Shown here: positions 1 to 48,187 of the stretch, in pieces | Position numbering within the stretch: the first letter of the stretch is position 1 | Layout: each line of letters starts with the position of its first letter | Position numbers and translations under genes: made by a program | Origin: Candidatus Aenigmatarchaeota archaeon | GTDB lineage: Archaea; Aenigmatarchaeota; Aenigmatarchaeia; CG10238-14; SpSt-28 | Assembly: GCA_038997305.1 (NCBI GenBank) | Contig: JAWAZZ010000003.1 | Location: forward strand, 1-62,972 | Direction: 5' to 3' | Length of the DNA: 62,972 nucleotides | The notes under the pieces: generated by a model | What the model was told of the DNA's origin: nothing | What the model saw: the letters and a program-made list of their open reading frames with translations, nothing else | Databases searched by the model: none

Positions 1-1650
1 GAAAAAACTTTTGTTGCTGATAGTGATAAAATAAATGTTTATGTTAAGTATAGAATTGGGAATGAAAGCTTTGAAGAAAGTAAAAGTTTTGAACTGAAGC
101 AAAGATTTTTAGATTTTAACTTAAGTTTTTCAAACAATAAGCTTTTAATTTTTGGTTTTTCTGAATGCTATAAGATTTTAAACTTAGAAATTTATAAAGA
201 TAGTTTGCTTTTGGAAAATAGAAGTTTTGAAGCTAATAATTCTTTTAGCTTGGAGTATGAAATAAATTCTAGCGGAAAATATGTTGTTTCTATTAATGGC
301 ATTTCCAAAGCTTTAGATATTAATTTAGAGCAAAATGTTTCTAAAAATGAAAGCTATTTGGTTTTGTATTTAAATAAGAATAATTTTACTTCTAACGAAA
401 CCATTCAGATTTTTGGCGAAGTTGTTTTTAATGGATTAAGAATTAATGATAGTATTAGCTTGAATGTTTTGTTTAATGATAGCTTAGTTTATAATTTTTC
501 TGTTAATGCTTTTAATGGAAGTTTTTCATATTCTTTCAGTTCTAACTTTTCTTCTGAAGGATTTTATGTTTTAAAAGCAATTTATAAAAATTTGGAAAAC
601 TTTACGACATTTTATTTTAAATCTTCTTCTTTTGAAAATATTATTAATAAAAGTTTTGAGAACATTACATCTAACCTTACCTCAGAAGAAATAACTTTTA
701 GCTTAAAAAGCTTGAAAAAACATTATAAAATTGGAGAGAAGGCTGTTTTTGAAATAGATTCTAAAGGTAAATTACCTAAAAAATTGTTTGCATATCTTAT
801 TGATCCAGAAGGAAAACAAATTAATGTAACAGATAAAATAGTTTATAGAGATGGAAAATATTTTGTTGAGTTAGATACTGGCAGAAGTTTTAGGCCTGGA
901 ATGTATAAATTAAAAGTTGTTGGTGTTGGAGATAAAGGTAAAGGAAAGGGAGCTTTTGGAGTTTTAGGAAGTGAAGAAATTAGTCAAGAAACTGAATTTG
1001 CTTTAGGTTTAGTGGTAGTTAATACTCCAAAATCAATTTATTTGCCTGGGGAAAATGTAACAATAATTGTTGGTGTTTTAGATATTTATGGAGGAAGAGT
1101 TACAGATGCAGATGTTAATCTTACTATAACAACACCATCTAAAAAGATTATCTCTGCCACTTATAATTATGCAACAAACTCTGGTGAAATAATTAATAAA
1201 GGTGATGGAACGTATGAATATTATTTTATACCTACTGAAATAGGTAGATATAATATTTCGGTATATGCGAGAAGTACTTCATCATTTGTGAATGCTACTT
1301 TTGAATCATTTTTTGAAGTAAGAAATTTTGTAGAATTTGATATAGAAAGGATTGGCCCAACAGTTTCTTATCTACATGGAGGAGAAATGTCAATTAGAAT
1401 AATCCCAAAAATAGATGCAGGAACACTAATAATTAGTGAATATTTACCAAAAGATTGGAATGTATCTACTGATAATGGAATTGTTTTGGAAAAAGAAGAT
1501 TCAAAAATAATAGTTTGGCATGTTAAATCTGAAAAGGATAAGCCAATTATACTTAACTATACTTTTGATCCACCAGACATTTCTCCTATGTTAGGTTTAT
1601 TAGGTCCTTTAGAAATAAAGTTTAAAGGTAATGAATTTAGAGAATTAAAA
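1..1650 (+). other. N-terminal (partial) run of Ig/MG/Big-like beta-sandwich modules of the giant protein
   Basis: Segments have the alternating beta-strand pattern of macroglobulin/Big-type domains. Examples are HYKIGEKAVFEIDSKG...GMYKLKVV and PKSIYLPGENVTIIVGVLDIYGGRVTDADVNLTITTP...GTYEYYFIPTEIGRYNISVYA. Called by eye only. Confidence 0.45.
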
Positions 1651-4600
1651 GAATGGAGTGTTGCTGTAGATACAGTATATTGGTTTTATGTTGAATGGTA
1701 TATAAGAGAGAGATATAGTGGAAAAGCCATAGATGAATTAACTCTATGTAGAGGGATGGATTATAACTTCACAATATTATTACTTGAATTAGCTTTTGAC
1801 ACAGATCTTTTAGATACAGCAACTTATAATGGAAAACTTCAAATTTTACCAGAAGGCGCAGCTTCTTATGTTGATTTACCAGCTTATGGTTGGGATTACT
1901 TTGATGGTTTAGGAAATGTTAGAGGAGTTCCTGGTAATGATATAGCCAATGCGTTGGGATGTGCTAATGGTGTCGATGATAACTGTTATTTTCATACGAG
2001 GGGGATAAGAATTTCCCCAACTGCCCAATTAGGAAGGTATAAATTAAAGTATACGATTTCTGGTTTGTCAGGATATTTTCAAGAAGGTACAAACATAATT
2101 AATGTTAGAGTAATAGATTGTAAAGATGTTAATTTAATTAGAAGAATAAAAGTCTATGGACCTTCTGGAAAATGGGGCTATGTAATAAGAGGTCATTTAG
2201 CAACTATTGCAGTTCCTTTAGCCAATTATAATGCCACAACAGCTATTTCAGGCAATGTATCAGTAAAAATTCTTGACGATAAAGGCAATGAGTTGAATTG
2301 GTTCTTCTGGGATAATAAAACCAAGAATTTTGTAATTCCACCTTCACCAAATGCACCCTATTCATATTCTGAAACTATTTTAACGTTTAGATTTGAAGTT
2401 CCAGACAATGCTATAGACATACCATACGCTGCAGAAGTTGAAATTAGAACAAACAGTACTATTAATTCGTATATAAGTTACTATGAACCTTTTGAGTTAC
2501 AATTATCAGATGATAATAGTAAATTTCCTGTGATAATATTTACTTCTCCACCCAGAGCTGGAACAGCGGATTCAGCAGCATCAGAAATTTATAGGTTTGC
2601 TGTTTGTAATTATGGAGATTATAATATTACAGGTGCAACAATAAACGTTTATCCTGTTGTTAAAGGTACGACTTCGCCAAGCGTTATAGAATCTATCAAT
2701 TTACCTTCTCCAACAACAATAACAGCTGAAACAATTACATGGACAAATGTAAATATCTCGACTTCAAACTGTTCTATCGCAGCTCTTAGAGTTGTTGGTC
2801 CTGAGGATGCCGGAATAGAAGGAGCTTATGTAATTGAAGTAATTTACTATGACCAAAATATTGGAAGCACTATATCTTTATCTAAGTATGATTCAACTTC
2901 CATAGCAGGAGGAAGTGCAACCAGTGATACTTCTGGGTCTCCAAATTTTAGATTTAATATAACTTATTTGCCATCTAGCGCTTCTATAGCAGTAAACTAT
3001 ATGCTACACGATACAGGAGATAGTGTTGGAAATGTTTATAGACTCTTGTTACAAATACCTCCAGGATTTAATTTAACTTATCTCAGTAGAGCTCCAGATA
3101 TCGGATATCCTATTGGTTCTATATACGAGGGTTATATTATTAGTTGGACTACTACAATCTCAACTACCTCTGGCGATACTGTTACAACAATTCCTGTTTC
3201 AGATATGAGATTTACTACTGGAATTATAGGTGATTTTACTCCTGGTGGTAAAGTCTTTTATCAACATTTAGTAGGTCATGGTGGTGCTAGATTAGCTAAA
3301 TGGTATACTTATCAAGAAACGCCTTTAATTCTCTTAGGTCCATGGCTTAAAACTGTAAGATATTATAACACAACTCCTATCGATGACCAAATAGGTTTTC
3401 CAACATTTTTTGCATGTGGTAATTTTACAACAAAATTACAAGTTTTCAATAAAGGTAATGTACCTGCTTATAACTTTAACATAACAGAAATAAAAGAAAA
3501 TATTATTAAAACACATCCAGGAGATTTGCAGTTTTATGGTTTTGTTCCTAATCCGAGCTATTATATTCAATCTCAATTAATAAATTGGGATAGTACTATT
3601 AGCTTTTTAGCTACAGGAAAAGATAATGCAAAAAACTTTACTTATTCTATTTTTGTTCCTTATCAAACTAATGGAACATTTAAGTTTTATGCAAGACCGA
3701 CAAATAGAACTTTAACTTTTTACGATGAAGATTATATAATTTCTGTAGCTTGTGGCGCAAGTTTAAGTGTAAGTGATTTAACAACTAAAAAAGGAGAAAT
3801 AACAAATCCAACAATATATGCTGGAGATATATTTAACATATCAGCAACAATTTATAACGATGGTCCTGGAAATGCAAGTAATGTTATAGTTGAAATAAAT
3901 TATACTAATACAACTCCAATAAAAGGTTTAGAAAACTTAGTAATTAGAAATATAACTTATCATATAAGCAATATAACATATCTAGGAACTATAGGTCCAA
4001 AACAATCAAAAATTGCACACATAGATTATACTTATATTGTTAATACTAGCAATGTAGGTCCAGGAACTATAAGATTCTGTATAATTGCAAACGCGACAGA
4101 AAATTCAACAAAAGTTTATAATTGTAAAGATGTAACATTAAACGCACCACCAGCATTAATTGAATTAGAAAATCCAATAATAATTTCTGAAGAAACCAAA
4201 ACTTCTAGCGGCTCTTGGGGTTTTGACTTTATATTTAATATAAGTGTTAGGGTTAGAAACTCGGATAATAATGTAAATGTTTGTGCATATTTTAGCAAAA
4301 CTGGAAGCGAACCATGGAAATTAATTGGTTGTAATGTTTATCCTGCACCAGGTACAAACATTGGAAATTGGATGAACTTTTCATTTAGATTTGATCCAAG
4401 TTGCGAAGATATCGGAAATCCAGTATTTGTTAAATTCAATGCAACAAATAATGCAGGAACTACTAATTCTACTCAAAACATTCCGTTTACAATAACTAAA
4501 GATAGAATAATATTCGAAAACATAATTGGCAATTCAACAGAAACAAGAAGAGGAAAAATACCAACATTATTGGCTTTAAGAGTTAGAGATGCTAACGGAA

Positions 4601-7600
4601 CTTTAATACCTAACTTACCAATAACATTTTACGTAACTTTAGATGGAAATGTTTACGATCAAGGTTATACAGTTTATACTAATTCTTCTGGATATGCAAA
4701 CTATAATTTCTTAGCATCATGTTCTCCAAAATATCAAGTTGGATATCAAAAATGGAAAGCAGTTTTAACAAACAATCAATGCTATGCAGATAATTCAACT
4801 GAAAATTATTATAACTTATCTGTTTTAGTTACTGGAGATATCTTATTGACATTAGTTAGACCAGATGGCTCTTCTAATTATACTCAAGAAGATACTATAA
4901 CATTCTTAGGTTATACTAACGATGATTGTGGAGATGCATTAACAGCAAATGTTAAATTCTATGCAAATCAAAGTTTAACAAGCTTTGAATGTTCAAACGT
5001 AATTCAAGTAGGTAGTAATGCATATACTTGTGATTGGCATACAGATATTACAACTCCTATGGGTTGGTATAATGTAACAATGGTTGCTTCTAGAGATTAT
5101 CACTATACAAACATAACAGCTAATGCAAAATATCCAGGATTATTCTATTTAAAACCAATCTATAAATTAGAAAATCCACAAGCATATCCTTTGCAAGAAG
5201 GTTGGGGTTATAAAAATTGGAATTTCACTGTTATTGCATCTAGTGGAGATAGTGTAAATGCATATGATGTTAATATTTATTTAGGAGATCTTTGGCCACC
5301 AGCAAAGCCTTGTGATAATTGTGTGAATGCAACTCCAAAAACATGTTTTAATTGCTATAAGCAAGTTGTTACCTTTTTAAGAAACTTCACAGCAAACGAA
5401 ATAGGAACTTGGTACTATAGATTTTCCTTAGGTCCAACTAGTACTACCCAAGTTACTTATGTCATTGTTGAAAAAGATGATGTTAACATTTCATATGTTT
5501 CTGGAAATAACTCTGTTGTTATTAAAGATACTCAACCTGCATTACTTTCGGTAAGAGTTTATGATTTAGATGCTCAAACATATAATTTAAATCCACCTGC
5601 ATTAGTAACTTTCAAAATATATGATAGCAGGTATCCAAATGGATATAAAATCATTGGAAGCAATTATACTAATTCTTCTGGATATGCAAACTTTTTGCTA
5701 AACATTACAGATTGTAGTTGGCTTGAAGGAACTCAAAAATGGAGTGCTGAAATAGATGATAGCGATAATGCATACAAAAAAGCTTATACTCCAGAAAATT
5801 ATACTATTACTCTTTATCTTCCAGGATGTCAACCACAAGTAGATATTTATTCTATCGATTTGCCAAAAGAAGCATTCCAATACAGAAACTTTACCATAAT
5901 AACTTATGTAACTTCTTGGGTTAGTGCAGCTAATGATGTTTACATTAACATAAGCTTACCAAATGGTTGGCTAGTAGACCAACAAACAAAATATTTAGGA
6001 ACTGTTAATGTTGGAGAGTTTAGAGAAGTTTATTGGAATATTTATCCAACAAGCTATGGAGAAGGATATGTTACTTTTTATGTAAATTCTAGCAACGCAG
6101 GAAGTAAAGTTAAAAGTAGTGATAAAGTTATAGTTTATAAGTTTGGCAATTCTCAACAAAACTCATTATTAACTCTTAATCCAAAAGATTCAAAGATATT
6201 GAATTTTGATTGCGAAGCAGGAATTTATAGATTAGCAAACCTTACTATTAACATTTCTAACGGAAATTCAATAATAAAAATTGAAAGCTTTAATGGATCT
6301 AACTGGATTATTGTTAGCAATAATCTATTTGTTAATACAAACAAATATTTCATTCCTATATTAACAAAGCAAATTTCTTCAGATTCTAATGGCAAATGTA
6401 AAATAAGAATTACAAATATCGGAAACTATTCAATAACTATTAATGAAGCATATCTTACTAGCTATTATAACGAGAGTTTGAGAATAGAAGGAATAAAAGT
6501 TTTAGTAAACAATGTTGAAGTTGAAAGTTTAGATAGTAGCGAAAGATATTTTAATGTTTCTGTGAGAATCGGAAATTCTTTAGATTACGATAAACAAGTT
6601 AATTTAACTTTAAAAATATTAAAGGATTCTACAGAAATTTATTCTAATAATAAAAGCTTTTTAATAAGTGCTAATTCTTTTGCATACATTAACTTTACAA
6701 ACATATCAACAAATTCTTGGAATGAAGGAATTTATAAAATAGTTGCGATATTACAATCTAGCGATTATAGCGAAACTCTTACAAGAGAAATTGTTTTTGA
6801 TAGCATTAAGATAGATGTCGATTATTCAAAATATCAATGTAATTCAACAACAGAAAAAATTAAAGTAACAATATATCAGCCATTAGAGGATATAATATTT
6901 TATAATGTTTCGTTGATTGTTCCATCTGGTTGGAATTACTTACCAAATAATGTAGCAATAACTTCTAAAGGTAAAGGTTATTATGTTGCAGAGTTTAACT
7001 TAACAGCATTTTCTGATATAGAGCAAAACTATCAAATAACTATAAAAGTTGACTATAACTATTCTACAGGAAAAACAAAAACTCAAAATATTATTTTAAC
7101 TGTTTCTCCAAACATTCCAATATTAGAAGTAATCAGGGAAATTCCATCTTTAGTATCTTCTTCTATAGTTTTTAAGCCAAGAATAACAATTCATAATAAA
7201 GGTTGTGGAGTTGCGAATAATGTAATAGTTAAGGAATATTTATCTGCAGGCTGGATTGGAGCTAATCCAAGTATTGCAAAGAATGAATATTCCGAAGATC
7301 CAGAAATCTCAAATAAAGACGTTGATCTAATTTATTCAGAAACAGATTTAATAAATAACATATTAACATGGAAACTTTCTGAAATTAAACCAAATCAATA
7401 TGCTGTATTAACTTATCAAATAAAGGCACCAGCAACATTAAATACTGAAGGAAACTTTTTGTATAACGTTTCTTGGAATGATAAATATTTTGTTCAAGAA
7501 AAAAATCCAACAAAAGTTTATACATATGCATATTCTCAAGAATCTCATTTAGAATTTGACTTAGAATCTTTACAAGATCCGAACTATCCTTGGTCAGAAG

Positions 7601-10600
7601 TTAGAAGTTTACAAGTTAATGTCCCATACAATTTAACATTAAAAGTTACAAATATAGGGGATATTCCAACATACTCAGATTGGATTGTTAAGCTATATAT
7701 TCCAAACGATTGCGATGTTATAAATGTTGAAAACGGAATATGGAATGTAAGTGAAAGAAAAATAGTTTGGAATTTGCAAAACATTGCAACTTATCAAACT
7801 GCATATCTAAACTTTACATTAAAATGTTATAAAGAAAAACAATTCGTATTAATTGCAGAAGGAATTAGAGATACTAGAACTCAAATAACTTTTGAAAATT
7901 CTACATCAATATATTGCGAATCTTCTTCAAAACCTGCTTATTGTTATTATAAATCTAACTTCATGTTAACTAAACCAAATAATGCAAGATATGAAAAGCT
8001 TAGCAATTTAACTCTAAAGATTTATAATGTATTTAGTGCAAATAATTTAACTGTTGGAAATTCATACGTTAAAGTTTTTGACGATTCATCTAATGAATAC
8101 ATAATTTGGCAAGACTTCTCATTCAATAATAAAGAATCAAACATAACTCAACAATTCTTAATTCCTGAAGAAATTCAAAACAATTTTGTTAATAGTTTAA
8201 AGACTTTTGAAATTAGTTCATACACAGATGCAACAAAAAACACATACACAAAAATATCAATACTTAATATTTCATACACATGGAATTTAGGAAGATTATT
8301 TAACGAAAGTCAGAATCTATTTATTAAATCTAAAGTTTATACGTATGCGCCACTATTAGCTAATGCAACTCTTTACATTAATGGAAGTAATAAAACAGTT
8401 GGTGGTTGGGGTGAAAAGTTTGAATTTAGTGTAAAAGTAAGAGATAGATTTGGAAGAGATGTTATTGTTAGACTTTATCATAGAAAAGTTGGAGATGTAT
8501 GGCAATTAGTAGGAGAACAAACCTGCTATTCTTGTTATAATTGGAAAGAATTTAACTTTACATACGATTACGATTATACTGATATTTCTAATTGGGAATT
8601 TAAGTTTGTTGGAATTAATTCAGATGGAACTAGCGAATTATATGGATATGTTTATACAGTTGAAAAAGATGATCTACAACTAACTCCAATATTGCCACAA
8701 TGGAATTCAAGCGTTTATAGAGCATATGGTTATAACTTTACGGTTTATGCTTTTGATATAGATAATCAAACGATTCCATATGTTTTAGAAGATAATAAGC
8801 CTTTCATAGCTTTAAGTCAATATGGAAATAATCAAACATACAAAATATACACAATTTCACCTGCGATAAATTCTTCTGGCTATATAATTTTGTATGTAAG
8901 TAATGCAGAGTTTTGTAATCCTTCAAACAATTTCTATTTAGGACAAAACTATTGGTATGCTGGAATTACTGCATCTAGCTATTATAAAGATACAAATACC
9001 AGAATTCCGCCATATAATGCATTACCATATGTTTTAATAGGAAGTTTGTACAATTCAATAATTTATCCTATAAATGTTAATTTTAGCTTTGAATTAGATA
9101 CAATAACATTAAGAGGTATTGTTAAAGATGATTGTGGAAATGTAAGAGCTGATGATGATATGTATGTTTACTTTAATTTAACTAATGGAAACTTCAATTA
9201 TCAATGCATTGCTACAAGAGTTGGCAATGAATTTCAATGTACTTTCAATCCAAGAGCATTGAATGCACCATTAGGTTGGTATAATATTACAATGTATTCT
9301 TCAAAACCATTGCATACAGAAGGAATTTCTATTGCAAGAAATGCATTCTTCTTAGCAATAATCCCAGATATAATAAATATATCGATTAAACCATTTGGAG
9401 GTCCTTGGGGATTAAGTCCATTTAACTTTTCTGCATACATTATAGATGAAGATAAAAACTTAGTAAACATTACTCATTATCTAAGAAAGTTGCCAGAAAA
9501 CTATCAAACAGCTTATTTAGATAGTTGTATAAATTGTAATTATTACTTAACTTCATTCTTAAGAAACTTTACTTGCGATTATTTAACAATAGATGTAGGT
9601 AATTGGACTTATAAAATAGAAGTAAAAGATGAAGCAGGCTTTTCAAATCAAAGTCAAGAAATAACTTTCGAAATACAGAAAGAACCTATAACAATAAACT
9701 TGCTAGAAGGTAACAATACTTTATTCAATAGAACAAATGTTCCGAATTCTAAACCTTATAATTTATCTGTTTATATTTTAGACACAATATTAAACAAAAA
9801 TGTTACGATAATACCAATTGTTAATTTAAGATTAGAAGGTCCTACAAACAGTTTAACATCAATGCAAATTGATGAAGCAAATAGTAAGTATTACTATGAA
9901 TTTTATCCAGATTGCTCATATAATGTTGGAGAATATAAATGGTATGTATATGTAACTAATGATCAATGTTATGCAAATGCAAGAAGCCAAAACTTTACTT
10001 TAAAAGTTTTTGGACAATTATATGTAAATATTATTTCTCCAACAGATTGGCAAATGGTATCAGAAGGTCAGCAAGTAAGTATTAGAGCAACTGTTTCAGA
10101 TGATTGTAATGTAGCTCAAAGCGATGCAAATGTTTATTTCATTTTAAGAAATGAAAGAACTTTGCAAGAATTTAGATGTCCAGAAAGCGGATATGCAACA
10201 TTCGATGGAACTTCATATGTTTGTAACTTTAATACTATTAGCAAACCAGGAGGTAATTATACTATAATTGCATATGCTTCTAAGAATTATTATTGGAATT
10301 CCTCTTCAATAAAACAAAATGCATTCTTCTTAGTAACTCCTGTAAGAATCTTAAATGTTTACATGAATTATGAGCAAGATGGAGGTTGGGGAGAAATCCA
10401 TAGCTTTACAGCAACAATAGATCATTATGCAGATGTTATTGTTTGTTTGTTAGAAAAACCTTTGGATGCAACTAACTATCAAATAACAGAATGTAAATAT
10501 TTAAGCAATCCTTCTGGAGGTAAAAATATTACGTTTAGTAAAAGATATACATGCAGCGATTATGTAAGAAGCCAATTCTGGAATTTTAAGATTAATGCAA

Positions 10601-27048: not shown

Positions 27049-27050
27049 TT

Positions 27051-33997: not shown

Positions 33998-34029
33998 TCC
34001 CTTTATTTTAATGTTTAATATTAATATTT

Positions 34030-34797
34030 ATGGCAGAAGTAATTGCTATTTTATCTGGGAAAGGTGGTGTCGGTAAAACTACTATCGCAATTAATATCGC
34101 AAACGTTTTGTCGACATATTTTCGAAGAAAAGTGCTAATTGTCGACACTAATTTTACTACTTCTCATTTAGGTTTAAGCCTCGGAATTTTTTACCCTCAA
34201 GGAAACTTAAATAAAGTTTTAAGAGACGAAATGGAAATTGAAGAAGCCATTCACAACTATTCTTTGGGACTAGATTTATTGCCTCTCTCTTTATCGGTAA
34301 GAGATTTAGAAGGTATAGACATAACAAAATTCCCTAGAGTTTTAGAAAAAGTAAATTACAGATACGATTATATAATCTTAGATGCTGCTCCGGGTTTAGG
34401 TAGAGAAGCTATAATTTCCATAAAAAACGCAGATAAAGTTTTGTACGTAGCTTTACCTATTATTCAAAGTATTGTAGATATTGTAAGAACTCAAGAAGTT
34501 GTCAGAGAATTTGAGAAAAAAGAAATTGGCGTAATATTGAATATGGTAAGAAATAAACCTTACGAAGTTAAGGATGAAGAAGTTGAAAGTTTAACAAACT
34601 TAAAAGTTATTGGGAGAATTCCATACGATGAAAGGTTTTTAATAGCAAACGCACACAAATTGCCTTATTCTGTTATGTTTACAAGCGGCAAAGTTTACAC
34701 CGAGTTTTTAAAAATATGTAGCATTATTGCAAATCAAAAATTAGAGATTAGAAAAGGTATTTTAAGTAAGTTTCTTGAGTTTTTATTAAGAAAATAA
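34030..34797 (+). CDS. MinD/ParA-family (deviant Walker A) ATPase, paralogue 1
   Basis: ILSGKGGVGKTTIAINIA is a deviant Walker A (KGGxGKT). YDYIILDAAPGLG is a Walker B-like segment. VIGRIPYDERFLIANAHKLPY is typical of the MinD/CpaE C-terminal part. Confidence 0.85.
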   Translation: MAEVIAILSGKGGVGKTTIAINIANVLSTYFRRKVLIVDTNFTTSHLGLSLGIFYPQGNLNKVLRDEMEIEEAIHNYSLGLDLLPLSLSVRDLEGIDITKFPRVLEKVNYRYDYIILDAAPGLGREAIISIKNADKVLYVALPIIQSIVDIVRTQEVVREFEKKEIGVILNMVRNKPYEVKDEEVESLTNLKVIGRIPYDERFLIANAHKLPYSVMFTSGKVYTEFLKICSIIANQKLEIRKGILSKFLEFLLRK

Positions 34798-34874
34798 AGA
34801 AATTGTATTAGTATAAAACTCTATTGTACCCAGCTACAAAGCTATATATTATTAAGCTTTCAAATATATTTATT

Positions 34875-35093
34875 ATGGAGGTTTATATTATAGGTTTAAC
34901 ATTAATATTAGTCATAGTTTTTGGAATATTTTTACTCTTAAAGAGAAGAGAAGAAAGAAATTTTTTGGAAGCTCTGGAAGAAATTGAGAGAAGCCTAATA
35001 TCTATGCAAAATAGCATTAGAAGTGCTCTTATGGTTTTGAAAGAAGATGAAAAAGTAAAGAGAAAGAAACATGCCAGAAAAAGGAGCGTTTGA
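34875..35093 (+). CDS. Small single-pass membrane protein (72 aa) with a charged C-terminal tail
   Basis: I prefer the ATG at 34875 (MEVYIIGLTLILVIVFGIFLLLKRREE...) to the TTG at 34824 in the ORF track. The 3' end overlaps the next gene by 23 nt. Confidence 0.55.
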   Translation: MEVYIIGLTLILVIVFGIFLLLKRREERNFLEALEEIERSLISMQNSIRSALMVLKEDEKVKRKKHARKRSV

Positions 35094-37233
35094 AGAATTA
35101 TTAATAGAAGTTGCAACAAAACTGGCTGAAATAGAGAAAAAAGTTAAAAGTAGTAATACTGAAGAAATTAAAAAGATTGAAGAAAATTTGCAAAATCAAA
35201 TAAATGAATTAGCAAAAACTCTTAATGAAATTGCTAACGAAGTAAAGAAGAAAAGGAGAGAAAAAGATCAAACACTTGAAATATTTAAAGCGGCTTTTGA
35301 AGAGAAATTAAAACTTTTTGAAGAAAAATTGAAAACTCTAGATAGAATAGATGCGATAGAAGCGGAGTTAAGAAAAATTAGAGAAGAAAAGGAGAAAAAA
35401 GATGATTTTTTTGGTGATTTAATTGGTGCATATGAAAAAGAAAAACAAATAAAATTGAGTGACAAAGTTGATGAAATAGATAAAAGATTGCAAACAATAG
35501 AAGAAACTTTAAAATTAATAAAAGAAGAAATACCAAAGTTAAAAGAGTTAGAAAATGTTAAAAAATCTTTAATAGAGTATGAGAGAAGAATTTCCTATTT
35601 AGAAAATTTTTTGAAGCCGGATAAAATTTTAAAGTTCGAACAAATAGAGAACTTTTTTAATAAAGAGTTGCCAAAAAGATTGGATAAAGAATTTCAAATA
35701 AGAGCTGAAATACTTTCTAAACAAATAAAAAATCTAGAAAGCGAGATAAATAAACTAAAAAGTAGCTTTTTGAGCAAGAGCGGTGAAATAGGATTTTTTG
35801 CAAAAGAAATAAAAAAGATTCCAGATTTAGAAAAAAATTTAGAAAATAGTAAAAAATACATAGAGAGTTTGGAAAGAAAATTAAATGAATTATTAATTGA
35901 AATTAACGAAATAAAAAATGAAAATAAAATCTCTAAAACAAAGATTGATGAAATAAGAAAAGAATTAGAAAATAATCTATCTTCGATAAAAGAGCTAGAT
36001 TCGACATTAAATCATCTGAGAAATTTTTCTAGCGAAATAAGAAAAATTGAAGAGAATATTTCTTCCTTAGAAGAAAAAATAAGAAAGAATGAAATAAATG
36101 TCTTTCAGATTAGCAAAACTGTTGAAGATATAAAAAATTATTATAAAAATAGTTTTCAAGGATTGTTCAATAGTTTCTCTCTTTTAAATCAAAGAGTTGC
36201 GAAATTAGAATCTTTAGACTTAACAAAAATAGAAAAAAATATTGAAAGTCTACAATATCTTAAAAATTCGATTAAACTTCTTGAGGAAAAATCAAAAGTA
36301 TATGAAAACTATTTTGGAGACCTTAATCATAAGCTTATCGAAATAAGTCTAATTAATGAAAAAATTAAAAAATTGAATGAAAAAGTAATCGACTTTGAAA
36401 AAAGTTTAGAGAATTTTACAGAAAATCTAGAAAAAATAAAAAGATTTTACAATAAAAACGAGACAGAATTCACTAATTTATATGAGGAATTAAGAAGATT
36501 AGAAAACAGAATTATTAACTTAAAAAATGAATTAGAAAGAATTGAAGAGATAAAAAGAAGAATTGTTACTTTAGAAGAGAGGTTTAACAATATAAAAGAT
36601 TTTGTAGATAATTTGGAAAAGGTATTTAAAGAAACTAGAAATTTGTTAAGAATTGTTGAAGAAATTAAAGAACATTATAATTCTCAAAAAGCTGAAACAG
36701 AAAAACTGAAAGAAATTACTCTAAATCTTGATATAGAATTGAAAAGATTGAAAGAAAAGAATTTTGAAGACAAAATCAATAGAATCCTAGAATATCTACT
36801 AAATATGGATAAGAGCCTAGAAAAAGTTATCAAAACAATTAATTCTATTAGAAACGTTTATTCGTTTGATAATAAGGATTTGATAGAAAGTACAAATAAC
36901 TTTTCTACTTTAGAAAAAATTTTACACGAAATTAACAAACAAAAACAAGAAATAGAGAAATTAAAATATGTAATTGAAGATGTTCTAAAAATCAAAGAAA
37001 AAATTTCGAACTTAGAAAATTTAAGACAAGGCATGCAAATTTCTATAAATAGATTAGAAGAATTTTTAGAAAATTCTGAAAAAATTTTGAAAATTGTTGA
37101 AAAGTTAAAAAGTGAACATAAAGAGGAAATGGAAAAAGTTAATAAGTTAGAAGAGGAAATAACTTTACTCGAAAATGAAATAAAAAATTTAAAAGAAAAA
37201 TATTTTGAGATATTAACACTCTTGAAAGAATGA
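35071..37233 (+). CDS. Long coiled-coil protein (720 aa), no TM, no NTPase motifs
   Basis: K/E/I/L/N heptad-rich composition runs end to end. The stop overlaps the next ATG (ATGA at 37230-37233). Confidence 0.8.
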   Translation: MPEKGAFEELLIEVATKLAEIEKKVKSSNTEEIKKIEENLQNQINELAKTLNEIANEVKKKRREKDQTLEIFKAAFEEKLKLFEEKLKTLDRIDAIEAELRKIREEKEKKDDFFGDLIGAYEKEKQIKLSDKVDEIDKRLQTIEETLKLIKEEIPKLKELENVKKSLIEYERRISYLENFLKPDKILKFEQIENFFNKELPKRLDKEFQIRAEILSKQIKNLESEINKLKSSFLSKSGEIGFFAKEIKKIPDLEKNLENSKKYIESLERKLNELLIEINEIKNENKISKTKIDEIRKELENNLSSIKELDSTLNHLRNFSSEIRKIEENISSLEEKIRKNEINVFQISKTVEDIKNYYKNSFQGLFNSFSLLNQRVAKLESLDLTKIEKNIESLQYLKNSIKLLEEKSKVYENYFGDLNHKLIEISLINEKIKKLNEKVIDFEKSLENFTENLEKIKRFYNKNETEFTNLYEELRRLENRIINLKNELERIEEIKRRIVTLEERFNNIKDFVDNLEKVFKETRNLLRIVEEIKEHYNSQKAETEKLKEITLNLDIELKRLKEKNFEDKINRILEYLLNMDKSLEKVIKTINSIRNVYSFDNKDLIESTNNFSTLEKILHEINKQKQEIEKLKYVIEDVLKIKEKISNLENLRQGMQISINRLEEFLENSEKILKIVEKLKSEHKEEMEKVNKLEEEITLLENEIKNLKEKYFEILTLLKE

Positions 37234-38150
37234 GCGAAGTTTTAAAACTTCTAAAAGAGAGAAAAGAAAAAATAAAAAAGCTTTTGAAAGAAGTTGAAGA
37301 TCTAAAGAAGAAAGTCGAAAATATTAAAAGATTAGAGAGAGATGATTATAAATATAAAAAACTTGTTGAAAACCTAAAAAATCAAATCGAAGATTATCTA
37401 TCAGAATTGAAAAGTAAAATTCTAAAAGAAGTATTAAATGAAGTTGATAGAAAAATGAACGAAACTCAGAAACTTCAAAAACAACTCTTTCTAGAAATTT
37501 CTCGTCTAAATTATGAATTAGAAAAATTGAAATATCAAAATTCTGAAGAAATAAAAGAGTTTGAAAACGAAGTAGAGAAAAAAATAAAAAAAATAGAGGA
37601 AAATAATACAAAAGTTAACACAGAATTAGAAAATATAGAGAAGACTATTTATTCTAATTTGAAAACTGTAGAAGAAAATTTGAAAAAATTAGAAGAAGTC
37701 TACAATCAAATAAGATTCGAAACAGAAAAGAGAATTTTGAAATCTATAGAAGAAAAAATTAATAGTTGGATGAAAGAGTTAGAAAAAAAGTCTGAAGAAT
37801 TATTAACAGATAACAGAAAAAAATTATCCAACATTTTAGAACAAGAAGTTCATATATTAAAGAAAAGAGTTAATGATACTATAGAAAAAGAATTAAAAAA
37901 TGTTTATAGAGAATTCGAAAAAGAATTATCAGAAGTTAAACAATTAAAGAGTATATTAAATTCTATTGTTGCTGAAAACGAAAAAATTAAATTAAGAATA
38001 TCAGAGAATGAAGATTATATTAAAAAATTAGAAAATCAAATCAAAAGATTAGAGGAAAGAATGATAGAAGTTAAAAGAGATGTTGAAAGGTTTGTAAACA
38101 AATCTATTGAAGAAGTTGAAGATTTTGTAAAAAGAGTTGTTAAGAGATAA
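37230..38150 (+). CDS. Coiled-coil protein (306 aa)
   Basis: Same composition as its neighbour and translationally coupled to the upstream gene by an ATGA overlap. Confidence 0.8.
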   Translation: MSEVLKLLKERKEKIKKLLKEVEDLKKKVENIKRLERDDYKYKKLVENLKNQIEDYLSELKSKILKEVLNEVDRKMNETQKLQKQLFLEISRLNYELEKLKYQNSEEIKEFENEVEKKIKKIEENNTKVNTELENIEKTIYSNLKTVEENLKKLEEVYNQIRFETEKRILKSIEEKINSWMKELEKKSEELLTDNRKKLSNILEQEVHILKKRVNDTIEKELKNVYREFEKELSEVKQLKSILNSIVAENEKIKLRISENEDYIKKLENQIKRLEERMIEVKRDVERFVNKSIEEVEDFVKRVVKR

Positions 38151-38280
38151 AATGAAGGTATTTAAAAATATAAAAGCAAAAATTAACAAAAACACTTTAT
38201 GTAATATTACCTTGGTACAATTTTTGAAGGTAAGTTGCACTTTTTTTGCACGCAATCAAAATCATACGGTTCTTCTCGAT

Positions 38281-38292
38281 GGGAAGGGGGGG
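38281..38292 (+). promoter_or_regulatory. Strong Shine-Dalgarno-like G-run (GGGAAGGGGGGG) 5 nt upstream of ATG 38298
   Basis: This is the only purine/G-rich ribosome-binding-like element I saw in front of any gene in the window. It lies inside a 147-nt intergenic gap. Confidence 0.5.
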
Positions 38293-38297
38293 TAAAC

Positions 38298-38906
38298 ATG
38301 AAAGAGCTATTAAACTCCCAAATATTTTGGTTTATATGGTTGAATTGTGCTGGAAAAGAGGTATCACTGTTTGAAATACAAAAAAGATGGAAAATAACCT
38401 CTAACTTTCTGTATCATAAACATAAGAAGCTTAAAAAAAGCTATGTAGAATTAATGCTAGAAGGAAATTTTATAGAAAAAATCGAAAATAAAATAAAAGC
38501 CAAATTCGAATGGGTTGAAGGTTATATTAAAGAATATTACAAGGGTACAATATTAGAAAGTTATAGCAATACTATTGCTAAATTTTGTATTAAATATAAT
38601 GAAGTGCTTTTTAATTTTGACAATCTGAAAATTCTTTTTGGCAATGAAGATAATTGGAAAACTTATGGGAAAGAAATTTTTAGATATGTGTTCTTTGCTC
38701 TACTATATAAAGATATTGTAAGGTTTTTAAAAGAGCATAGAGCAGAAAAATTGAAAATGCTTATCGATATTGTAGTTAATTCTACATCCAATGTAAACTT
38801 ATTAGAATATAGTGAAAGAGTTTCAGAAAAAATAATAGAATATGCTAACATAATATCTACAAAAACCGATATAGAAAAAATGTATCAACTGTTAAAAAGT
38901 AAATAA
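38298..38906 (+). CDS. Hypothetical cytoplasmic protein (202 aa), possibly DNA-binding (weak)
   Basis: I prefer the ATG at 38298 behind the G-run to the TTG at 38235. The protein starts MKELLNSQIFWFIWLNCAGKEVSLFEIQKRWKITSNFLYHK. It has no TM and I recognised no family. Confidence 0.6.
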   Translation: MKELLNSQIFWFIWLNCAGKEVSLFEIQKRWKITSNFLYHKHKKLKKSYVELMLEGNFIEKIENKIKAKFEWVEGYIKEYYKGTILESYSNTIAKFCIKYNEVLFNFDNLKILFGNEDNWKTYGKEIFRYVFFALLYKDIVRFLKEHRAEKLKMLIDIVVNSTSNVNLLEYSERVSEKIIEYANIISTKTDIEKMYQLLKSK

Positions 38907-38908
38907 TT

Positions 38909-41647
38909 ATGGCAGAAAATTATTTAGAACAAATAGATACATTAAAAACTAAGGTCGAAATTTTGACAAAATTAATAACTAGATTAAGAGATGATATAAA
39001 GGAGGATGTTTCTAAAATTAAAGAAGAAATTAAAAATGATGTTATAAATATTGCTTCTGATAAATTAAAAGAGATTGATAAAGAGATTGAAGAAATGCTA
39101 AAAAAATTCGACTCTATTTATAAAGCAGATATAGAAAATCTAAAAAATAAATTACAAGAGTTAGAATTCTATTCAAAAACATCTCTTAACTTAAAAGTTG
39201 ATAAATATGTCGAAGAGATAGAAAAAATAAAAAATTCTATTGATGAAATTAAAAAAGAATATTTGAATATCTCGAAAACTCTTAATAAAGTTTTAGAAGA
39301 AAAAGAAATTATTAAAAGTAATTTTGAAAACCTAAATTTGTTGAAAGCAAAAACAGAAAATCTCTTACAAAGAGTTAATTCTTTTGAAAAATTTTTATCA
39401 GAAGTTTCACTACTAATTTCCGATATTAGAAGTTTAGAAAATGAGATAAAAATTTTAAAAAATGTTCAAAAAATAGAAAGCTCTAAATACAATGAAAACA
39501 TAGTAAAGATTTCGAACGAAATAGAAAAAATAAGAAAAGATTTTGAAGAAATAAGAAAAGTAATAAATTCTTTAGACTTTATTCAAAAAAATTTGGAAAG
39601 TATTACAGAAAAAAATTCTATAGAAATTGAAAAAGTAAAATCAGAAAGTTTTGAAAGGATTGAAAATTTGAAATCTTTAGTTAATACCTCTTTAGATGAA
39701 ATAAACAAGCGTTTGAAAAATGAAGAAGATGAAATAAAAAAATTAAAGGAATTACAAGATAAGTTAGATCAAAAGCTAAAGGAAGTTCTTATAATAACTT
39801 TGAAAGAAAATGAAAGTCTCAATAAAAATTTGGAAGAAAAATTAGGATCATTAAAGCAAAGTGTTAATAATGTCTATCAACTATTTAACGAATTAAAAGA
39901 TAAGATTTTCGAGTTAAACCAATTCAAGGACGAACAGTTAATTTTGTTTTCTAATTATTCGCAAAAAACTCAAAATTTAGAAGAAAAATACAAAAATTTA
40001 ATCGAAGAAATAACAAACATAAGAACATTACTTGAAGATATTAAAGATGATTTAAAACACTTTAAGGATGAGATTAATAACTCAATTTCTCAACAAGTGA
40101 ATTCTTTTACGGAAAAACAAAAAGAAGCTATTGAAAACTTATTCAAAAAAATTTCATATTTAGAAGAAAGTTTGAAAACTCTAAAAGATTTTCTCTTACA
40201 AGAAATTCAACATAACGTTACTAATATTAATAAAAACTTTGAAAACTTATTGGAGAATTATAAAAGCGAAACAAATAAAAGAATTTATGAGATTGAACAA
40301 AAAATATCTCAATTAAAAACAAGCTCGATAGAAGAATTAGGAAAGGCATTAGAAAACACAAACTCAAACCTTAACAAAATATCTCAAATTACAGAGGAAT
40401 TAAGAAATGAAATATTTAAGCTAAACCAATTCAAAGATGAAAGTTTAATATATTTTTCTAATTATGCACAAAAATTCCAAGAAATAGATTCTTTATCTCA
40501 AAATCTGAAAAATGAGATAACAAATCTTAGATCTTCTTTAGAAAAAATAGAGAATAATTTAAAAGAGTTTGATGAAAGATTTGAGAAAAAAAGAGAAGAA
40601 CAACAAAAACTTCAAAACTTAATAAATTATCTAGAAAGAGATATCGAAAATTTGAAAGTATTATTATCTAAAGAAATTGAAGATAAAATTCAAAACGTCA
40701 AAACAGAAATTAATGAAAAAATTGAAAATTTACAAGAAGGTTTTAAAAAAGAAGTTGAAACATTAAAAGAAAATGTTATAAATAAGCAAGAATTCCAAAA
40801 CATCAAATTGAAAATCGAAGATGAAGTTTCACAACTTATTTCTGAAAAAACTTCAAACACAGAAAACAAAATCAATAACTTAAATGAAATTCTTAAAAAT
40901 TTGAATTCAAGAATAAATGTCTTAACTAACGATATTGAAAAAGTAAAAGAATCTATAAATCAATTCAAAATAAACATAGAAGAAATTTCTAACAAAATTA
41001 AGGAAAATGAAAATATCACAAAAGATGAAATAAAGAAGAATATAGAGAAATTAATAAATGATGTAAAAAATGATGTCTTGGCAATAAAAAATGAAACTCA
41101 AAGTTTTGCAATAGAAAATATTTCCAAAATAGAAAATAAAATATCGAACTTAGAAGAAAGATTAAAAGATTTGGCTAACAGTTTTGTTGACAAAAGAGAA
41201 CTTGAAAACCTCAAAGTTCAAATAAATGAAAAGTTATTAGATGTGCCAGTTTTATTTGAAAGATTTTCGAAGATAGAAAAATTGTTCGACGAGTTTAATT
41301 CCAGCATAAAGAATATTTCTTCAAAGCTAAACTATCTAAACGAAGAAATCGAAAAAATTAAATCGAGAGAAATTTTAATTAGAGAAAATAAAATTAAGAA
41401 AGAAGATTATGAGATAATAAGTTTGAAAGAGGAAATAAACAAAATTAAGACAAAACTAGAAGAAAAATTAGAAAACGCTTTATCGAAGTTAAAAGAAGAA
41501 ATAAATTCACTATCAAAGAGAATAGAGGAAATAGAATCAAAATACAAGGAAGAAAAATTGACCACAAAAGAAAATATTGAATTAAATGAATTGGAAAAAA
41601 TCATAAAAGAATTGGAAAATAAGGGAAGATTTATAGAAATAGAATAA
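38909..41647 (+). CDS. Very long coiled-coil protein (912 aa) with an internal ~170-aa duplication
   Basis: The ATG lies 2 nt after the previous stop and the protein is heptad-rich throughout. IFELNQFKDEQLILFSNYSQKTQNLEE (~39909) pairs with IFKLNQFKDESLIYFSNYAQKFQEIDS (~40414). Confidence 0.8.
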   Translation: MAENYLEQIDTLKTKVEILTKLITRLRDDIKEDVSKIKEEIKNDVINIASDKLKEIDKEIEEMLKKFDSIYKADIENLKNKLQELEFYSKTSLNLKVDKYVEEIEKIKNSIDEIKKEYLNISKTLNKVLEEKEIIKSNFENLNLLKAKTENLLQRVNSFEKFLSEVSLLISDIRSLENEIKILKNVQKIESSKYNENIVKISNEIEKIRKDFEEIRKVINSLDFIQKNLESITEKNSIEIEKVKSESFERIENLKSLVNTSLDEINKRLKNEEDEIKKLKELQDKLDQKLKEVLIITLKENESLNKNLEEKLGSLKQSVNNVYQLFNELKDKIFELNQFKDEQLILFSNYSQKTQNLEEKYKNLIEEITNIRTLLEDIKDDLKHFKDEINNSISQQVNSFTEKQKEAIENLFKKISYLEESLKTLKDFLLQEIQHNVTNINKNFENLLENYKSETNKRIYEIEQKISQLKTSSIEELGKALENTNSNLNKISQITEELRNEIFKLNQFKDESLIYFSNYAQKFQEIDSLSQNLKNEITNLRSSLEKIENNLKEFDERFEKKREEQQKLQNLINYLERDIENLKVLLSKEIEDKIQNVKTEINEKIENLQEGFKKEVETLKENVINKQEFQNIKLKIEDEVSQLISEKTSNTENKINNLNEILKNLNSRINVLTNDIEKVKESINQFKINIEEISNKIKENENITKDEIKKNIEKLINDVKNDVLAIKNETQSFAIENISKIENKISNLEERLKDLANSFVDKRELENLKVQINEKLLDVPVLFERFSKIEKLFDEFNSSIKNISSKLNYLNEEIEKIKSREILIRENKIKKEDYEIISLKEEINKIKTKLEEKLENALSKLKEEINSLSKRIEEIESKYKEEKLTTKENIELNELEKIIKELENKGRFIEIE

Positions 41648-41650: not shown

Positions 41651-42037
41651 TTAAGTTGCTAAGAAATAATATTTCTTCTTCCCTTCTCTTACACTCTTTA
41701 CCTCTCCGCTTTCTTCCATTTCAACCAAATATTCGGAACATCTTGTTCTAGATAGATTCAAAAGATTTGCTAAATCCTGAGCAGTAAGTTTTCCATGTTT
41801 TTTTAGCAATATTTTTATTAACTCTTTTGTTTTTTTGGTTAATGGTGTTCCAACATCTTCTATCTTCATGTTTCTTTTGATTATTGAAATTTCAGCATTT
41901 ATTTCTTTTATTTTTTCTTCTAATTCTAACATTTTATCGTAAAGTTTTGTGAAAAAGTTATAAAGATTGTCGAGCTTTTGATTTATAATAGCAACTGCCA
42001 ATTCTTCGTTATCTTTTTTCTTCTTTAAAAATACCAT
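41651..42037 (-). CDS. Winged-helix (MarR/TrmB-like) transcription regulator with an N-terminal coiled coil
   Basis: The C-terminal half reads KELIKILLKKHGKLTAQDLANLLNLSRTRCSEYLVEMEESGEVKSVREGKKKYYFL, which has HTH plus wing features. The N-terminal ~60 aa are heptad-like. Confidence 0.65.
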   Translation of the reverse strand: MVFLKKKKDNEELAVAIINQKLDNLYNFFTKLYDKMLELEEKIKEINAEISIIKRNMKIEDVGTPLTKKTKELIKILLKKHGKLTAQDLANLLNLSRTRCSEYLVEMEESGEVKSVREGKKKYYFLAT

Positions 42038-42047
42038 AAAAATATTA

Positions 42048-42230
42048 TTATCCTATCTTTTTAAGCATTGGCACTCCGTTCTTAGCTTCTATAACCATAT
42101 AGCCAGGCGGTATTGCTTCTAAAGCATCTACAGGATCTTTACTAAAATAAAAAATTAGATTTCCCCCTCTACCTATTTTCATATGTAAATACCATATTTC
42201 ACCTTTCTTATTTTTATATTGAAAGGGCAT
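42048..42230 (-). CDS. Small conserved-looking protein (60 aa), function unknown
   Basis: The ORF sits 2 nt downstream of the 703-aa gene on the same strand. The sequence is MPFQYKNKKGEIWYLHMKIGRGGNLIFYFSKDPVDALEAIPPGYMVIEAKNGVPMLKKIG, which is non-low-complexity. Confidence 0.5.
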   Translation of the reverse strand: MPFQYKNKKGEIWYLHMKIGRGGNLIFYFSKDPVDALEAIPPGYMVIEAKNGVPMLKKIG

Positions 42231-42232
42231 AA

Positions 42233-45051: not shown

Positions 45052-45067
45052 AAAAAATAAAAATAAA
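45052..45067 (-). terminator. Oligo-T tract (TTTATTTTTATTTTTT on the minus strand) downstream of the 319-aa secreted-protein gene
   Basis: Archaeal terminators are typically T-runs. This tract lies in the 32-nt gap between the stop at 45084 and the MinD ATG at 45051. The AT-rich background weakens the call. Confidence 0.3.
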
Positions 45068-45083
45068 GGATGTATTTATTCTA

Positions 45084-46043: not shown

Positions 46044-46059
46044 AAATATAAACATACTC

Positions 46060-46077: not shown

Positions 46078-46096
46078 TTGTTATTGCTTATCATTT

Positions 46097-46966: not shown

Positions 46967-46968
46967 AT

Positions 46969-48146: not shown

Positions 48147-48187
48147 AGCACATTAATCCATTATAAAGTTAATTAAAAAACATTTTT

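Follow-up and report, generated by a model that had tools for sequence, protein, structure and literature searches.

A conserved DPANN gene cluster encoding a candidate cell-surface machine centred on a giant fibre–ATPase fusion

Introduction

What kind of cellular system would combine a surface protein that exceeds 9,000 residues and ends, inside the cell, in a HerA/FtsK-type ATPase with a cytoplasmic adaptor, a second surface protein, a MinD-type ATPase and a series of long coiled-coil proteins? This question is raised by the first 41,647 nucleotides (nt) of a stretch of 62,972 nt, hereafter the window, which corresponds to contig JAWAZZ010000003.1 of the assembly GCA_038997305.1 (Candidatus Aenigmatarchaeota archaeon). 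The window has a low guanine-cytosine (GC) content of about 22-32%, and its source is a low-GC archaeon of the DPANN group, of which the nearest relative among the loci listed here is an Aenigmatarchaeota metagenome-assembled genome (MAG), represented by the locus L007. The DPANN archaea represent much of the diversity of the Archaea, and a life in attachment to other cells is assumed for them. A first-pass annotation, made from the letters of the sequence, had hypothesized a localized, cytoskeleton-anchored contact site used by a surface-attached symbiont, a lifestyle with which the DPANN membership of the organism is in keeping.

The interpretation favoured here, in which moderate confidence is placed, is that the region encodes a conserved, DPANN-specific and membrane-spanning machine of the cell surface, which would most likely serve host contact and be driven by ATP. 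The nine genes involved lie between bases 1 and 41647, all on the plus strand, closely packed in one direction and operon-like. According to the table of open reading frames (ORFs), their successive junctions are a 2-nt gap (27048/27051), an ATGA overlap (28262-28265), a 32-nt gap (33997/34030), a 77-nt gap (34797/34875), a 23-nt overlap (35071-35093), a second ATGA overlap (37230-37233), a 147-nt gap (38150/38298) and a 2-nt gap (38906/38909), which reproduces every junction of the first-pass annotation. Its statement that no component other than the two ATPases carries an enzymatic domain is also borne out by Pfam, in which no further such domain was found among the nine proteins.

The giant surface protein

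The first gene (1-27048) encodes a giant type-I surface protein of more than 9,015 amino acids (aa), composed of an ectodomain, a single transmembrane (TM) helix and a cytoplasmic HerA-type ATPase. The ORF is listed as 205-27048, yet the frame runs without a stop from the first base of the window, and the additional 68 residues (window 1-204) resemble further beta-rich ectodomain. The 5' edge of the window therefore cuts through the gene, whose listed start codon (TTG at 205) is not the true one but results from the way the ORFs were listed. By simple composition arithmetic, DNA of 28% GC would be expected to present a stop about every 12 codons, against the 9,015 codons of this open frame, a length far beyond chance expectation.

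In the first ~8,600 residues, the Pfam matches are solely structural beta-sandwich domains, i.e., Big_1, Big_7, Filamin, MG2, NEW3, and DUF11. About 13 diverged super-repeats of ~320 aa, made up of immunoglobulin (Ig)-like modules, extend over residues 2765-6889 (8293-20667), as revealed by self-BLAST offsets at multiples of ~320 aa, and two additional copies are found at 3886-5955. As the copies share only 24-33% identity with one another in self-BLAST, the array does not represent a collapse or other artefact of the assembly. Over the whole ectodomain, N-X-S/T sequons occur at 3.85 per 100 aa, against the 1.54 expected from its composition, and their density falls to zero on the cytoplasmic side of the hydrophobic helix, which fits a topology with the N-terminus outside and the C-terminus inside.

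Next to the membrane, a conserved module (25000-25878) combines a Cys-rich motif, a linker rich in proline, glycine and alanine (25000-25194) and two CARDB/NEW3-like Ig domains. This module is common to short-form homologs of ~725 aa, and BLAST of the last 999 aa of the giant protein recovers the similarity to these short forms from residue ~378 onwards. It is followed by the single TM helix (25879-25950), a hydrophobic stretch beginning ITYLVAFGIAPSAW..., which is also a helix in the AlphaFold2 (AF2) model.

The ATPase domain

Within the 390 residues assigned to the cytoplasmic part of the giant protein, the P-loop ATPase (25951-27045) presents a Walker A motif, GGTGSGKT (26107-26130), a Walker B motif, LLLVYDEIH (26479-26505), the motif REFRKWG (26563-26583) and a C-terminal helical bundle. 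The residues G137, G140, G142, K143, D266, and E267, together with REFRKWG, are invariant among 16 homologs. The Pfam family DUF87 matches the domain at 1.7e-9 (38.5 bits, above the cut-off of 23.2 bits), and a profile of the 16 homologs, searched against the PDB, finds the Sulfolobus HerA 4d2i at 5e-10. The AF2 model, with a predicted local distance difference test (pLDDT) of 88.6, leads Foldseek to the same HerA hexamer as its best match (4d2i, 3e-12), with a TM-score of ~0.48 and a sequence identity of 14-19%, and further matches include Sir2-HerA, DUF4297-HerA and HerA-NurA complexes, TcpA (a coupling protein of conjugation), and FtsK. The Walker motifs and the RecA-like fold thus place the domain in the HerA/FtsK superfamily of ring ATPases.

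On the other hand, no named family within this superfamily accommodates it. HerA proper begins with a HAS barrel, and the AF2 model presents only a beta-hairpin before Walker A, with the TM helix and a long helix on the N-terminal side; no NurA match was found in the cluster with Pfam or NCBIfam, and the NCBIfam HerA models reach 24-28 bits on the domain, against cut-offs of 800-970. The best NCBIfam model is CedD (NF053655), which scores 43.1 bits (2.3e-11) against a cut-off of 600 and covers ~87 residues; with this score below the cut-off, and no components of the Ced system or of type IV secretion systems in the cluster (Pfam, NCBIfam), the domain is not a member of the CedD/VirD4 family. 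Nor does it belong to a type VII secretion system, given that the ATPase of the window has no match to PF01580 at E <= 0.01 and no WXG100 protein is present, and a few of its homologs do list PF01580 among their precomputed Pfam matches. The domain therefore belongs to the superfamily, and to none of its named families.

This ring-translocase nature of the first ATPase, evident in both the PDB profile and Foldseek, had escaped the first-pass annotation, and it makes a motor, rather than a passive anchor, the more likely mechanism.

Conservation of the locus

The ATPase domain has 519 homologs in the databases, mostly labelled Aenigmarchaeota, and its family is present in at least 575 loci when one genome per GTDB species is scanned. 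The best 80 of these at least 575 loci come mostly from Aenigmatarchaeota, and the other labels among them are Micrarchaeota, Nanoarchaeia, Woesearchaeota, Parvarchaeota, Altiarchaeota, Haiyanarchaeum, and Nanohalarchaeota; the closest is L007, from a hot-spring Aenigmatarchaeota MAG, with an ATPase identity of 89%.

The ATPase ORF remains open across the whole 10-kb upstream flank in 40 of the 80 loci and up to the contig end in 32 more, and starts within the locus in the other eight, two of which are forms of ~725 aa. The fusion of the ATPase to a giant ectodomain is thus the usual state in the loci compared. In one locus (L001, JGI contig Ga0527077_0545), the giant gene is called as a product of 8,615 aa, followed by several fragments and a separate ATPase gene of 400 aa; this is probably a single homologous giant gene, split by frameshifts or by breaks in the assembly.

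The short forms (L003, L004, L005, L077, and L083) consist, within ~725 aa, of the Cys motif, the proline- and glycine-rich linker, the two Ig domains, the TM helix and the ATPase, and their loci retain the adaptor, a membrane protein of ~345 aa related to the second surface protein, and MinD. As the short and giant forms keep the same cytoplasmic partners, the core at and below the membrane is constant and the ectodomain is the variable part. Upstream of three short forms (L003-L005), there are small ORFs of about 50-310 aa and then a large surface protein, which in L003 has 1,871 aa and beta-helix repeats. A giant form (L031) and a short form (L083) occur in the same MAG, and two giant-form loci (L074 and L086) are found on scaffolds 1 and 3 of a single Nanoarchaeia MAG, which means that a genome can carry paralogous copies.

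The first-pass annotation had made its proposal depend on synteny in related genomes, and this holds for the core of the cluster. A homolog of the 404-aa adaptor lies directly downstream of the ATPase in all of the loci with enough sequence (74/74). Of the 47 loci that extend 9 kb or more downstream, 31 contain a homolog of the 1,911-aa surface protein (~1,950-2,100 aa), 21 contain MinD, and 13 contain neither. These 13 include most of the loci with labels other than Aenigmarchaeota, and outside that group the ATPase-adaptor pair alone is seen within 10 kb. The long coiled-coil genes are conserved only in position. A scan of metagenomes with the family of the 202-aa protein, described below, found 75 loci. 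In many of the Aenigmarchaeota loci, and in many independent metagenomic ones, the ATPase gene is followed in turn by those of the adaptor, the ~2,000-aa surface protein, the 202-aa protein, MinD and the small TM protein, and then by two or three long coiled-coil genes. The window departs from this order solely in that its 202-aa gene comes after the second of the coiled-coil genes and before the third.

The adaptor and the second surface protein

The adaptor (27051-28265) is a cytoplasmic coiled-coil protein of 404 aa, with no TM segment, a heptad coverage of 78% and a conserved central core that includes the motif IGELRS. It is followed by the second surface protein (28262-33997), of 1,911 aa, which comprises a signal anchor, an ectodomain with MG2 (1.2e-12) and NEW3 (1.3e-8) matches, an extracellular coiled-coil stalk, a TM helix at residue 1807 (from about nt 33680) and a cytoplasmic tail of ~80 aa. 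Its sequon density is 5.0 per 100 aa in the ectodomain and zero in the tail, and its N-terminal domain has no Pfam match even at E <= 1. The two surface proteins had been described as sharing the same membrane-proximal layout, which is correct for the architecture (a proline- and alanine-rich linker, CARDB/NEW3-like Ig domains and the TM helix) but not for the sequence, in which only one Ig domain is detectably similar (E 8e-5).

A motif of ~40 aa, LLEREYKEG(I/L)IS..AY..LK.RNEEKL..IE, closes the tail in all 45 full-length homologs of the second surface protein. A hidden Markov model (HMM) built from these tails recovers 77 proteins of the adaptor family, with one to three copies at the N- and C-terminal ends, and 72 ORFs of the adhesin family, to which only seven other ORFs are added, mostly short fragments located at the ends of contigs. 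Within the window, this motif ends the tail of the second surface protein (residues 1875-1911, 33884-33994, 3.5e-15) and occurs in the adaptor at residues 7-52 (27069-27206, 6e-7) and 323-368 (28017-28154, 8e-6), with a partial copy at 28212-28262; no further ORF of the window scores. The motif resembles SHOCT, which Pfam finds in the adaptor of the window at E 0.0013 and 18.8 bits, below the cut-off of 27 bits, and one adaptor-family member each weakly matches SHOCT (1.9e-4) and SHOCT_2 (2.9e-4). Beyond these weak matches, the adaptor family has no Pfam or PDB assignment.

Given that the motif is confined to two neighbouring families and is always cytoplasmic, it provides the best evidence available here for a physical link between them, and it suggests that the adaptor and the second adhesin are physically coupled. 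As the motif is combined with a strict adjacency of the genes, the likely role of the adaptor is to connect the second adhesin with the presumed ring of ATPases.

In five other loci (L043, L050, L054, L063, and L073, three of them labelled Micrarchaeota or Micrarchaeia), the adaptor homolog is longer, with 945-1,337 aa. In four of these five, the next gene is a large ORF of 962-1,800 aa, for which phmmer gives no link with the 1,911-aa protein and which may be a diverged counterpart of it.

MinD, its partner, and the coiled-coil proteins

The second ATPase (34030-34797, 255 aa) is of the MinD/FleN type. It has the deviant Walker A motif SGKGGVGKTT at its N-terminus and matches AAA_31, CbiA and ParA of Pfam above their cut-offs, and its best NCBIfam model is TIGR01969 (minD_arch), at 2.7e-47 and 161.1 bits, below the curated cut-off of 201.75 bits. 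Its C-terminus, KGILSKFLEFLLRK, has the sequence of an amphipathic membrane-targeting helix (about 34750-34794), and the pattern ...F..FL+FF.. ends nearly all of the cluster MinDs, whose C-termini have a mean hydrophobic moment of 1.74, against 1.42 in internal control windows. This helix points to the binding of a membrane, rather than of DNA. Together with the motif common to the adaptor and the second adhesin, it makes a membrane-associated complex more probable than a chromosome-associated one.

MinD is followed by a bitopic membrane protein of 72 aa (34875-35093), with an N-terminal TM helix and a charged, coiled-coil cytoplasmic tail. It has a homolog in L007 (1e-10), and a protein of similar build, mostly of 87-96 aa, stands just past MinD in 38 of 59 loci, a count that includes a few unrelated multi-TM proteins.

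The protein of 202 aa (38298-38906), which the first-pass annotation had left undescribed, proved to be a conserved partner of MinD, given that its gene adjoins that of MinD in 45 of 61 distinct MinD loci. Its family has 211 members, all of them labelled hypothetical and with no Pfam domain, and the protein of the window has no Pfam or NCBIfam match. The AF2 model (pLDDT 94.5) is composed of an N-terminal winged-helix-like domain and an all-helical domain. Foldseek finds no significant match to the model in the PDB, the helical domain included; the best matches are to the winged helices of PadR (Rv1176c, E 0.23), IclR, and ArsR types, at E 0.23 or worse, and the local structural matches to BigR/ArsR cover 72 columns, with a root-mean-square deviation of 3.5 A. 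In several loci, the pair formed by this protein and MinD lies beside other surface-protein genes instead of the adhesins, and these genes are homologs of the downstream genes of the window.

The three long coiled-coil proteins have 720 aa (35071-37233), 306 aa (37230-38150) and 912 aa (38909-41647), with no TM segment and heptad coverages of 0.90, 0.95 and 0.93, respectively, both kinds of call being made with a heuristic of this analysis. Over these genes, the first-pass annotation is confirmed: the MinD/ParA-type ATPase by TIGR01969 and Pfam, the small membrane protein by its single N-terminal TM helix, and the four TM-less coiled-coil proteins (404, 720, 306, and 912 aa) by a heptad compatibility of 78-95%.

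The Pfam and PADLOC matches of the long coiled-coil proteins are only compositional. The 720-aa protein has a homolog at the same position in L007 (3e-121), and the 306-aa protein has no specific homolog among the loci fetched. In the common clade, the three coiled-coil genes after MinD represent three distinct and well-conserved families, whose HMMs, defined by position, score 500-660 bits on their own members. A sequence orthology of the 720-, 306-, and 912-aa proteins with those of other loci was rejected, given the background level of their scores on these HMMs. From what can be detected in the sequences, the long coiled-coil genes appear to be conserved by position and architecture. Of the 26 distinct MinD loci whose downstream sequence reaches 5 kb or more, 16 have one or more long coiled-coil genes near MinD, and 12 have at least two.

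Comparison with known systems

The closest likeness is to HerA of the HerA-NurA system (4d2i), which shares with the cluster ATPase the P-loop fold and motifs, provides the best profile and structure matches, and would lead one to expect, by analogy, a hexameric ring. However, the structural similarity is modest, and the cluster ATPase has neither the N-terminal barrel nor the NurA partner, and is tethered by a TM helix and fused to an extracellular fibre of more than 8,600 aa. CedD/CedB, VirD4/TcpA, FtsK/SpoIIIE and EssC/EccC likewise have an ATPase domain directly beneath a TM segment, although to our knowledge none of them carries a large extracellular domain. The cluster also lacks the partner genes of those systems, and has instead the adaptor and 202-aa families, which are unannotated.

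A second likeness is to the FleN/MinD/ParA positioning systems, as the cluster encodes an ATPase with a deviant Walker A and a C-terminal amphipathic helix beside coiled-coil proteins and a surface machine. PomXYZ of Myxococcus is an example of a positioning ATPase that works with coiled-coil cargo or adaptor proteins. At archaeal surface-filament loci, ATPases of the FleN/MinD type (e.g., arCOG00589 at type IV pilus loci) are the commonest regulators (PMC4858521). The cluster differs from these systems in that the partner of its MinD is a new winged-helix-like family, and no homologs of MinC/MinE or PomX/PomY are present. It is not a type IV filament locus either, as bases 1-41647 contain no GspE/FlaI ATPase, no TadC/FlaJ platform, and no pilins with class III signal peptides.

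The terminal organelle of Mycoplasma, to which the first-pass annotation had compared the cluster, also combines large adhesins and long cytoplasmic coiled coils at one site of a wall-less or reduced cell. This likeness is one of logic only, and the comparison is reduced to an analogy by the lack of any homologous component, given that Pfam finds no homolog of the organelle adhesins or of the HMW, P65, or P200-type scaffolds among the nine proteins. The two also belong to different domains of life, bacterial and archaeal, and we know of no HerA-type ATPase fused to an adhesin, and no MinD, in the Mycoplasma organelle.

In the DPANN archaea themselves, cryo-electron tomography of Nanobdella aerobiophila (PMC11104419) and of YN1 (PMC11420986) has revealed an attachment organelle, a multi-part structure at the interface between symbiont and host that shows repetitive densities outside the cell and a thin tube of up to 360 nm, and whose molecular identity is stated as unknown (PMC11104419). 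By estimate, Ig-like modules strung together over more than 8,600 aa would give a fibre on the length scale of this organelle. Neither PMC11104419 nor PMC11420986 mentions such genes. A survey of DPANN protein families has reported Aenigmarchaeota-specific modules with no annotation (PMC8204110). In a literature search of incomplete coverage, for which an earlier description remains conceivable, no account of the fusion between a giant adhesin and HerA, or of the cluster, was found.

Overall, the cluster was rated as lying outside the known kinds of system, given that the tests of membership fail for HerA-NurA, CedD/VirD4, type VII secretion, type IV filaments, the Mycoplasma organelle, and HerA-based defence. 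A virus or mobile element was rejected as well, as no relatives were found in IMG/VR and the PHROGs matches are weak.

Proposed mechanism and alternative explanations

In the mechanism proposed, the giant protein would form, outside the cell, a heavily N-glycosylated fibre, built from Ig-like modules in tandem over more than 8,600 aa, and inside, a C-terminal ATPase of the HerA/FtsK type with intact catalytic motifs. Six copies of the ATPase would assemble into a ring under the membrane, by analogy with every characterized member of the superfamily, and thereby bundle six fibres, and the adaptor would tie the second adhesin to this ring through the SHOCT-like motif. By analogy with the ParA/MinD systems, MinD, its winged-helix-like partner, the bitopic protein and the long coiled coils may position the complex at a single membrane site and scaffold it there. 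The likeliest use is contact with a host cell, given the organism and the variable ectodomain, and the fold of the ATPase suggests that ATP could drive either the translocation of a polymer across the membrane of the symbiont or mechanical work on the fibres, which is a speculative step.

Several points weigh against this account. The true N-terminus of the giant protein, with its signal peptide and distal domain, lies beyond the window, and the export signals are therefore out of view. Outside the Aenigmarchaeota, the ATPase-adaptor pair alone is seen within 10 kb, and the long coiled-coil genes are absent near MinD in 10 of the 26 loci. The coiled-coil proteins of the window score 10-38 bits on the HMMs of the three position-defined families (L007 left out), which is the background of any coiled coil, the SHOCT assignment falls below the Pfam thresholds, and the winged-helix-like domain predicted for the 202-aa protein could mean DNA binding. 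The host association of the Aenigmarchaeota is itself inferred, and hexamer formation, the binding of the adaptor and the nature of the substrate are likewise elements that we infer.

A bolder version of this account is tentative and, on balance, doubtful. The cluster would encode the organelle by which DPANN archaea attach to their hosts: a hexameric HerA-type motor ring in the membrane of the symbiont, coupled to the second adhesin by the SHOCT-like motifs, positioned by MinD over a scaffold of coiled coils, and bearing six glycoprotein fibres of several hundred nanometres that reach or penetrate the host. At the expense of ATP, the ring would draw host DNA or RNA, as a source of nucleotides, or host proteins into the symbiont. 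If this were true, it would represent a new class of inter-cellular import machine.

The best surviving alternative, which nevertheless seems unlikely, is a general system of the cell envelope or cell shape, in which the huge glycoproteins would constitute an envelope or sheath, and the ATPase, MinD and the coiled coils would be involved in envelope assembly, division, or a cortical cytoskeleton. Proteins rich in Ig repeats and sequons do resemble archaeal envelope proteins, MinD-family ATPases and coiled-coil proteins are classic factors of division and shape, the cluster is so widespread in DPANN genomes as to look like housekeeping, and a giant and a short form can coexist in a single MAG (L031 and L083). 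However, the great variation of the ectodomain in length and sequence, over a constant cytoplasmic core, is more typical of interaction proteins than of lattice proteins, and no FtsZ, SepF, or Cdv genes were found in the cluster with Pfam or NCBIfam. We also know of no envelope protein that carries a translocase ATPase.

A DNA-transfer apparatus, either a conjugation-like exporter or a Ced-like importer, is rather improbable. Here, the HerA/FtsK motor would be accompanied by a winged-helix protein and a ParA/MinD ATPase that handle DNA, and the adhesins would stabilize mating pairs. The closest named NCBIfam model of the motor (2.3e-11) is indeed CedD, a membrane-bound VirD4-like ATPase required for DNA import in Sulfolobus (PMC11823120), although at 43 bits against 600, and over ~87 residues only. 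The Foldseek matches to TcpA and FtsK and the winged-helix-like domain of the 202-aa protein point in the same direction, and PHROGs scores MinD as a ParA-like partition protein (4e-27), but this MinD has a membrane-targeting helix and no relatives of the cluster are found in viral contigs. The Pfam and NCBIfam scans found neither a relaxase nor a VirB4, VirB2-like pilin, or CedA-like gene in the cluster, whose chromosomal location and wide vertical distribution are unlike the patchiness of a mobile element.

The two remaining explanations fit the data poorly. The neighbourhood might be composed of two unrelated units, one of adhesins and the other dedicated to chromosome segregation or the nucleoid, with the winged-helix protein, ParA/MinD and SMC-like coiled coils. 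The 202-aa protein and MinD do travel as a pair (45/61 loci), which in L093, L113, L149, L152, L160, and L162 is found with other genes and without the adhesins, although elsewhere, too, the pair neighbours surface proteins, and the order from adhesin to MinD recurs over many distant loci. PADLOC matches the coiled coils to SMC-like arms (JetC and LmuB), but these matches are compositional, with no head domains, and unrelated coiled-coil families score alike; the membrane-targeting helix of MinD and the membrane-anchored coiled-coil protein that follows it also speak against this division, which is very unlikely. Finally, a HerA-based anti-virus defence with a surface sensor was rejected as highly implausible, given that the PADLOC matches of the ATPase to HerA and mad8 (about 1e-11 to 1e-12) are partial (at most 45 bits) and, like the Foldseek matches to the Sir2-HerA and DUF4297-HerA complexes, invoke the shared ATPase core only, with nothing but coiled-coil noise beside them, that no Sir2, nuclease, or other effector domain was found (Pfam, PADLOC), and that the cluster is conserved and syntenic over DPANN lineages, rather than patchy like a defence island.

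Other features of the window

Both GC and AT skew are strongly positive (up to about 0.3) at 26001-28000 and 34001-40000, coinciding with the coiled-coil genes, which is due to purine-rich Glu and Lys codons and not to a replication feature. The long minus-strand ORFs inside the coiled-coil genes (e.g., 27146-27712) are low-complexity shadows. The scans for RNA genes found no tRNA and no Rfam family in the window.

A second block of surface genes extends over 41651-53720. It encodes an ArsR-like helix-turn-helix (HTH) protein (128 aa), a 60-aa protein, a membrane-anchored surface protein of 703 aa, a second MinD/FleN ATPase (241 aa) and secreted or membrane proteins of 336, 289, 171, 224, 1,236, 209, and 403 aa. 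As homologs of these genes recur beside the 202-aa family in other loci (L093, L149, L152, L160, and L162), the whole window may be regarded as a cell-surface island.

The last part of the window (53742-62756) is a separate type IV filament locus, with two T2SSF/TadC-like platform genes, an FlaI-like ATPase and a CBS-pair/ArsR-HTH protein on the minus strand, followed by six plus-strand genes, the products of which have a short hydrophobic, pilin-like N-terminus. The FlaI-like ATPase matches the NCBIfam model of the archaellum FlaI at 6.8e-85, below the cut-off.

Conclusions

The membrane-spanning surface machine proposed here provides a concrete and widely conserved candidate list of parts for the contact structures of the DPANN archaea. 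Its centrepiece is unusual, a surface fibre that exceeds 9,000 residues and ends, on its inner side, in a ring-translocase ATPase, and two of its predicted contacts, that of the adaptor with the second adhesin through their common motif and that of MinD with its 202-aa partner, are testable. If this reading is true, the long-standing question of how ultra-small symbionts hold and exploit their hosts would become directly testable, and a new architecture would be added to the FtsK/HerA translocases. If the cluster were instead a system of the envelope or of division, it would still represent a conserved and unannotated module of DPANN cell biology.

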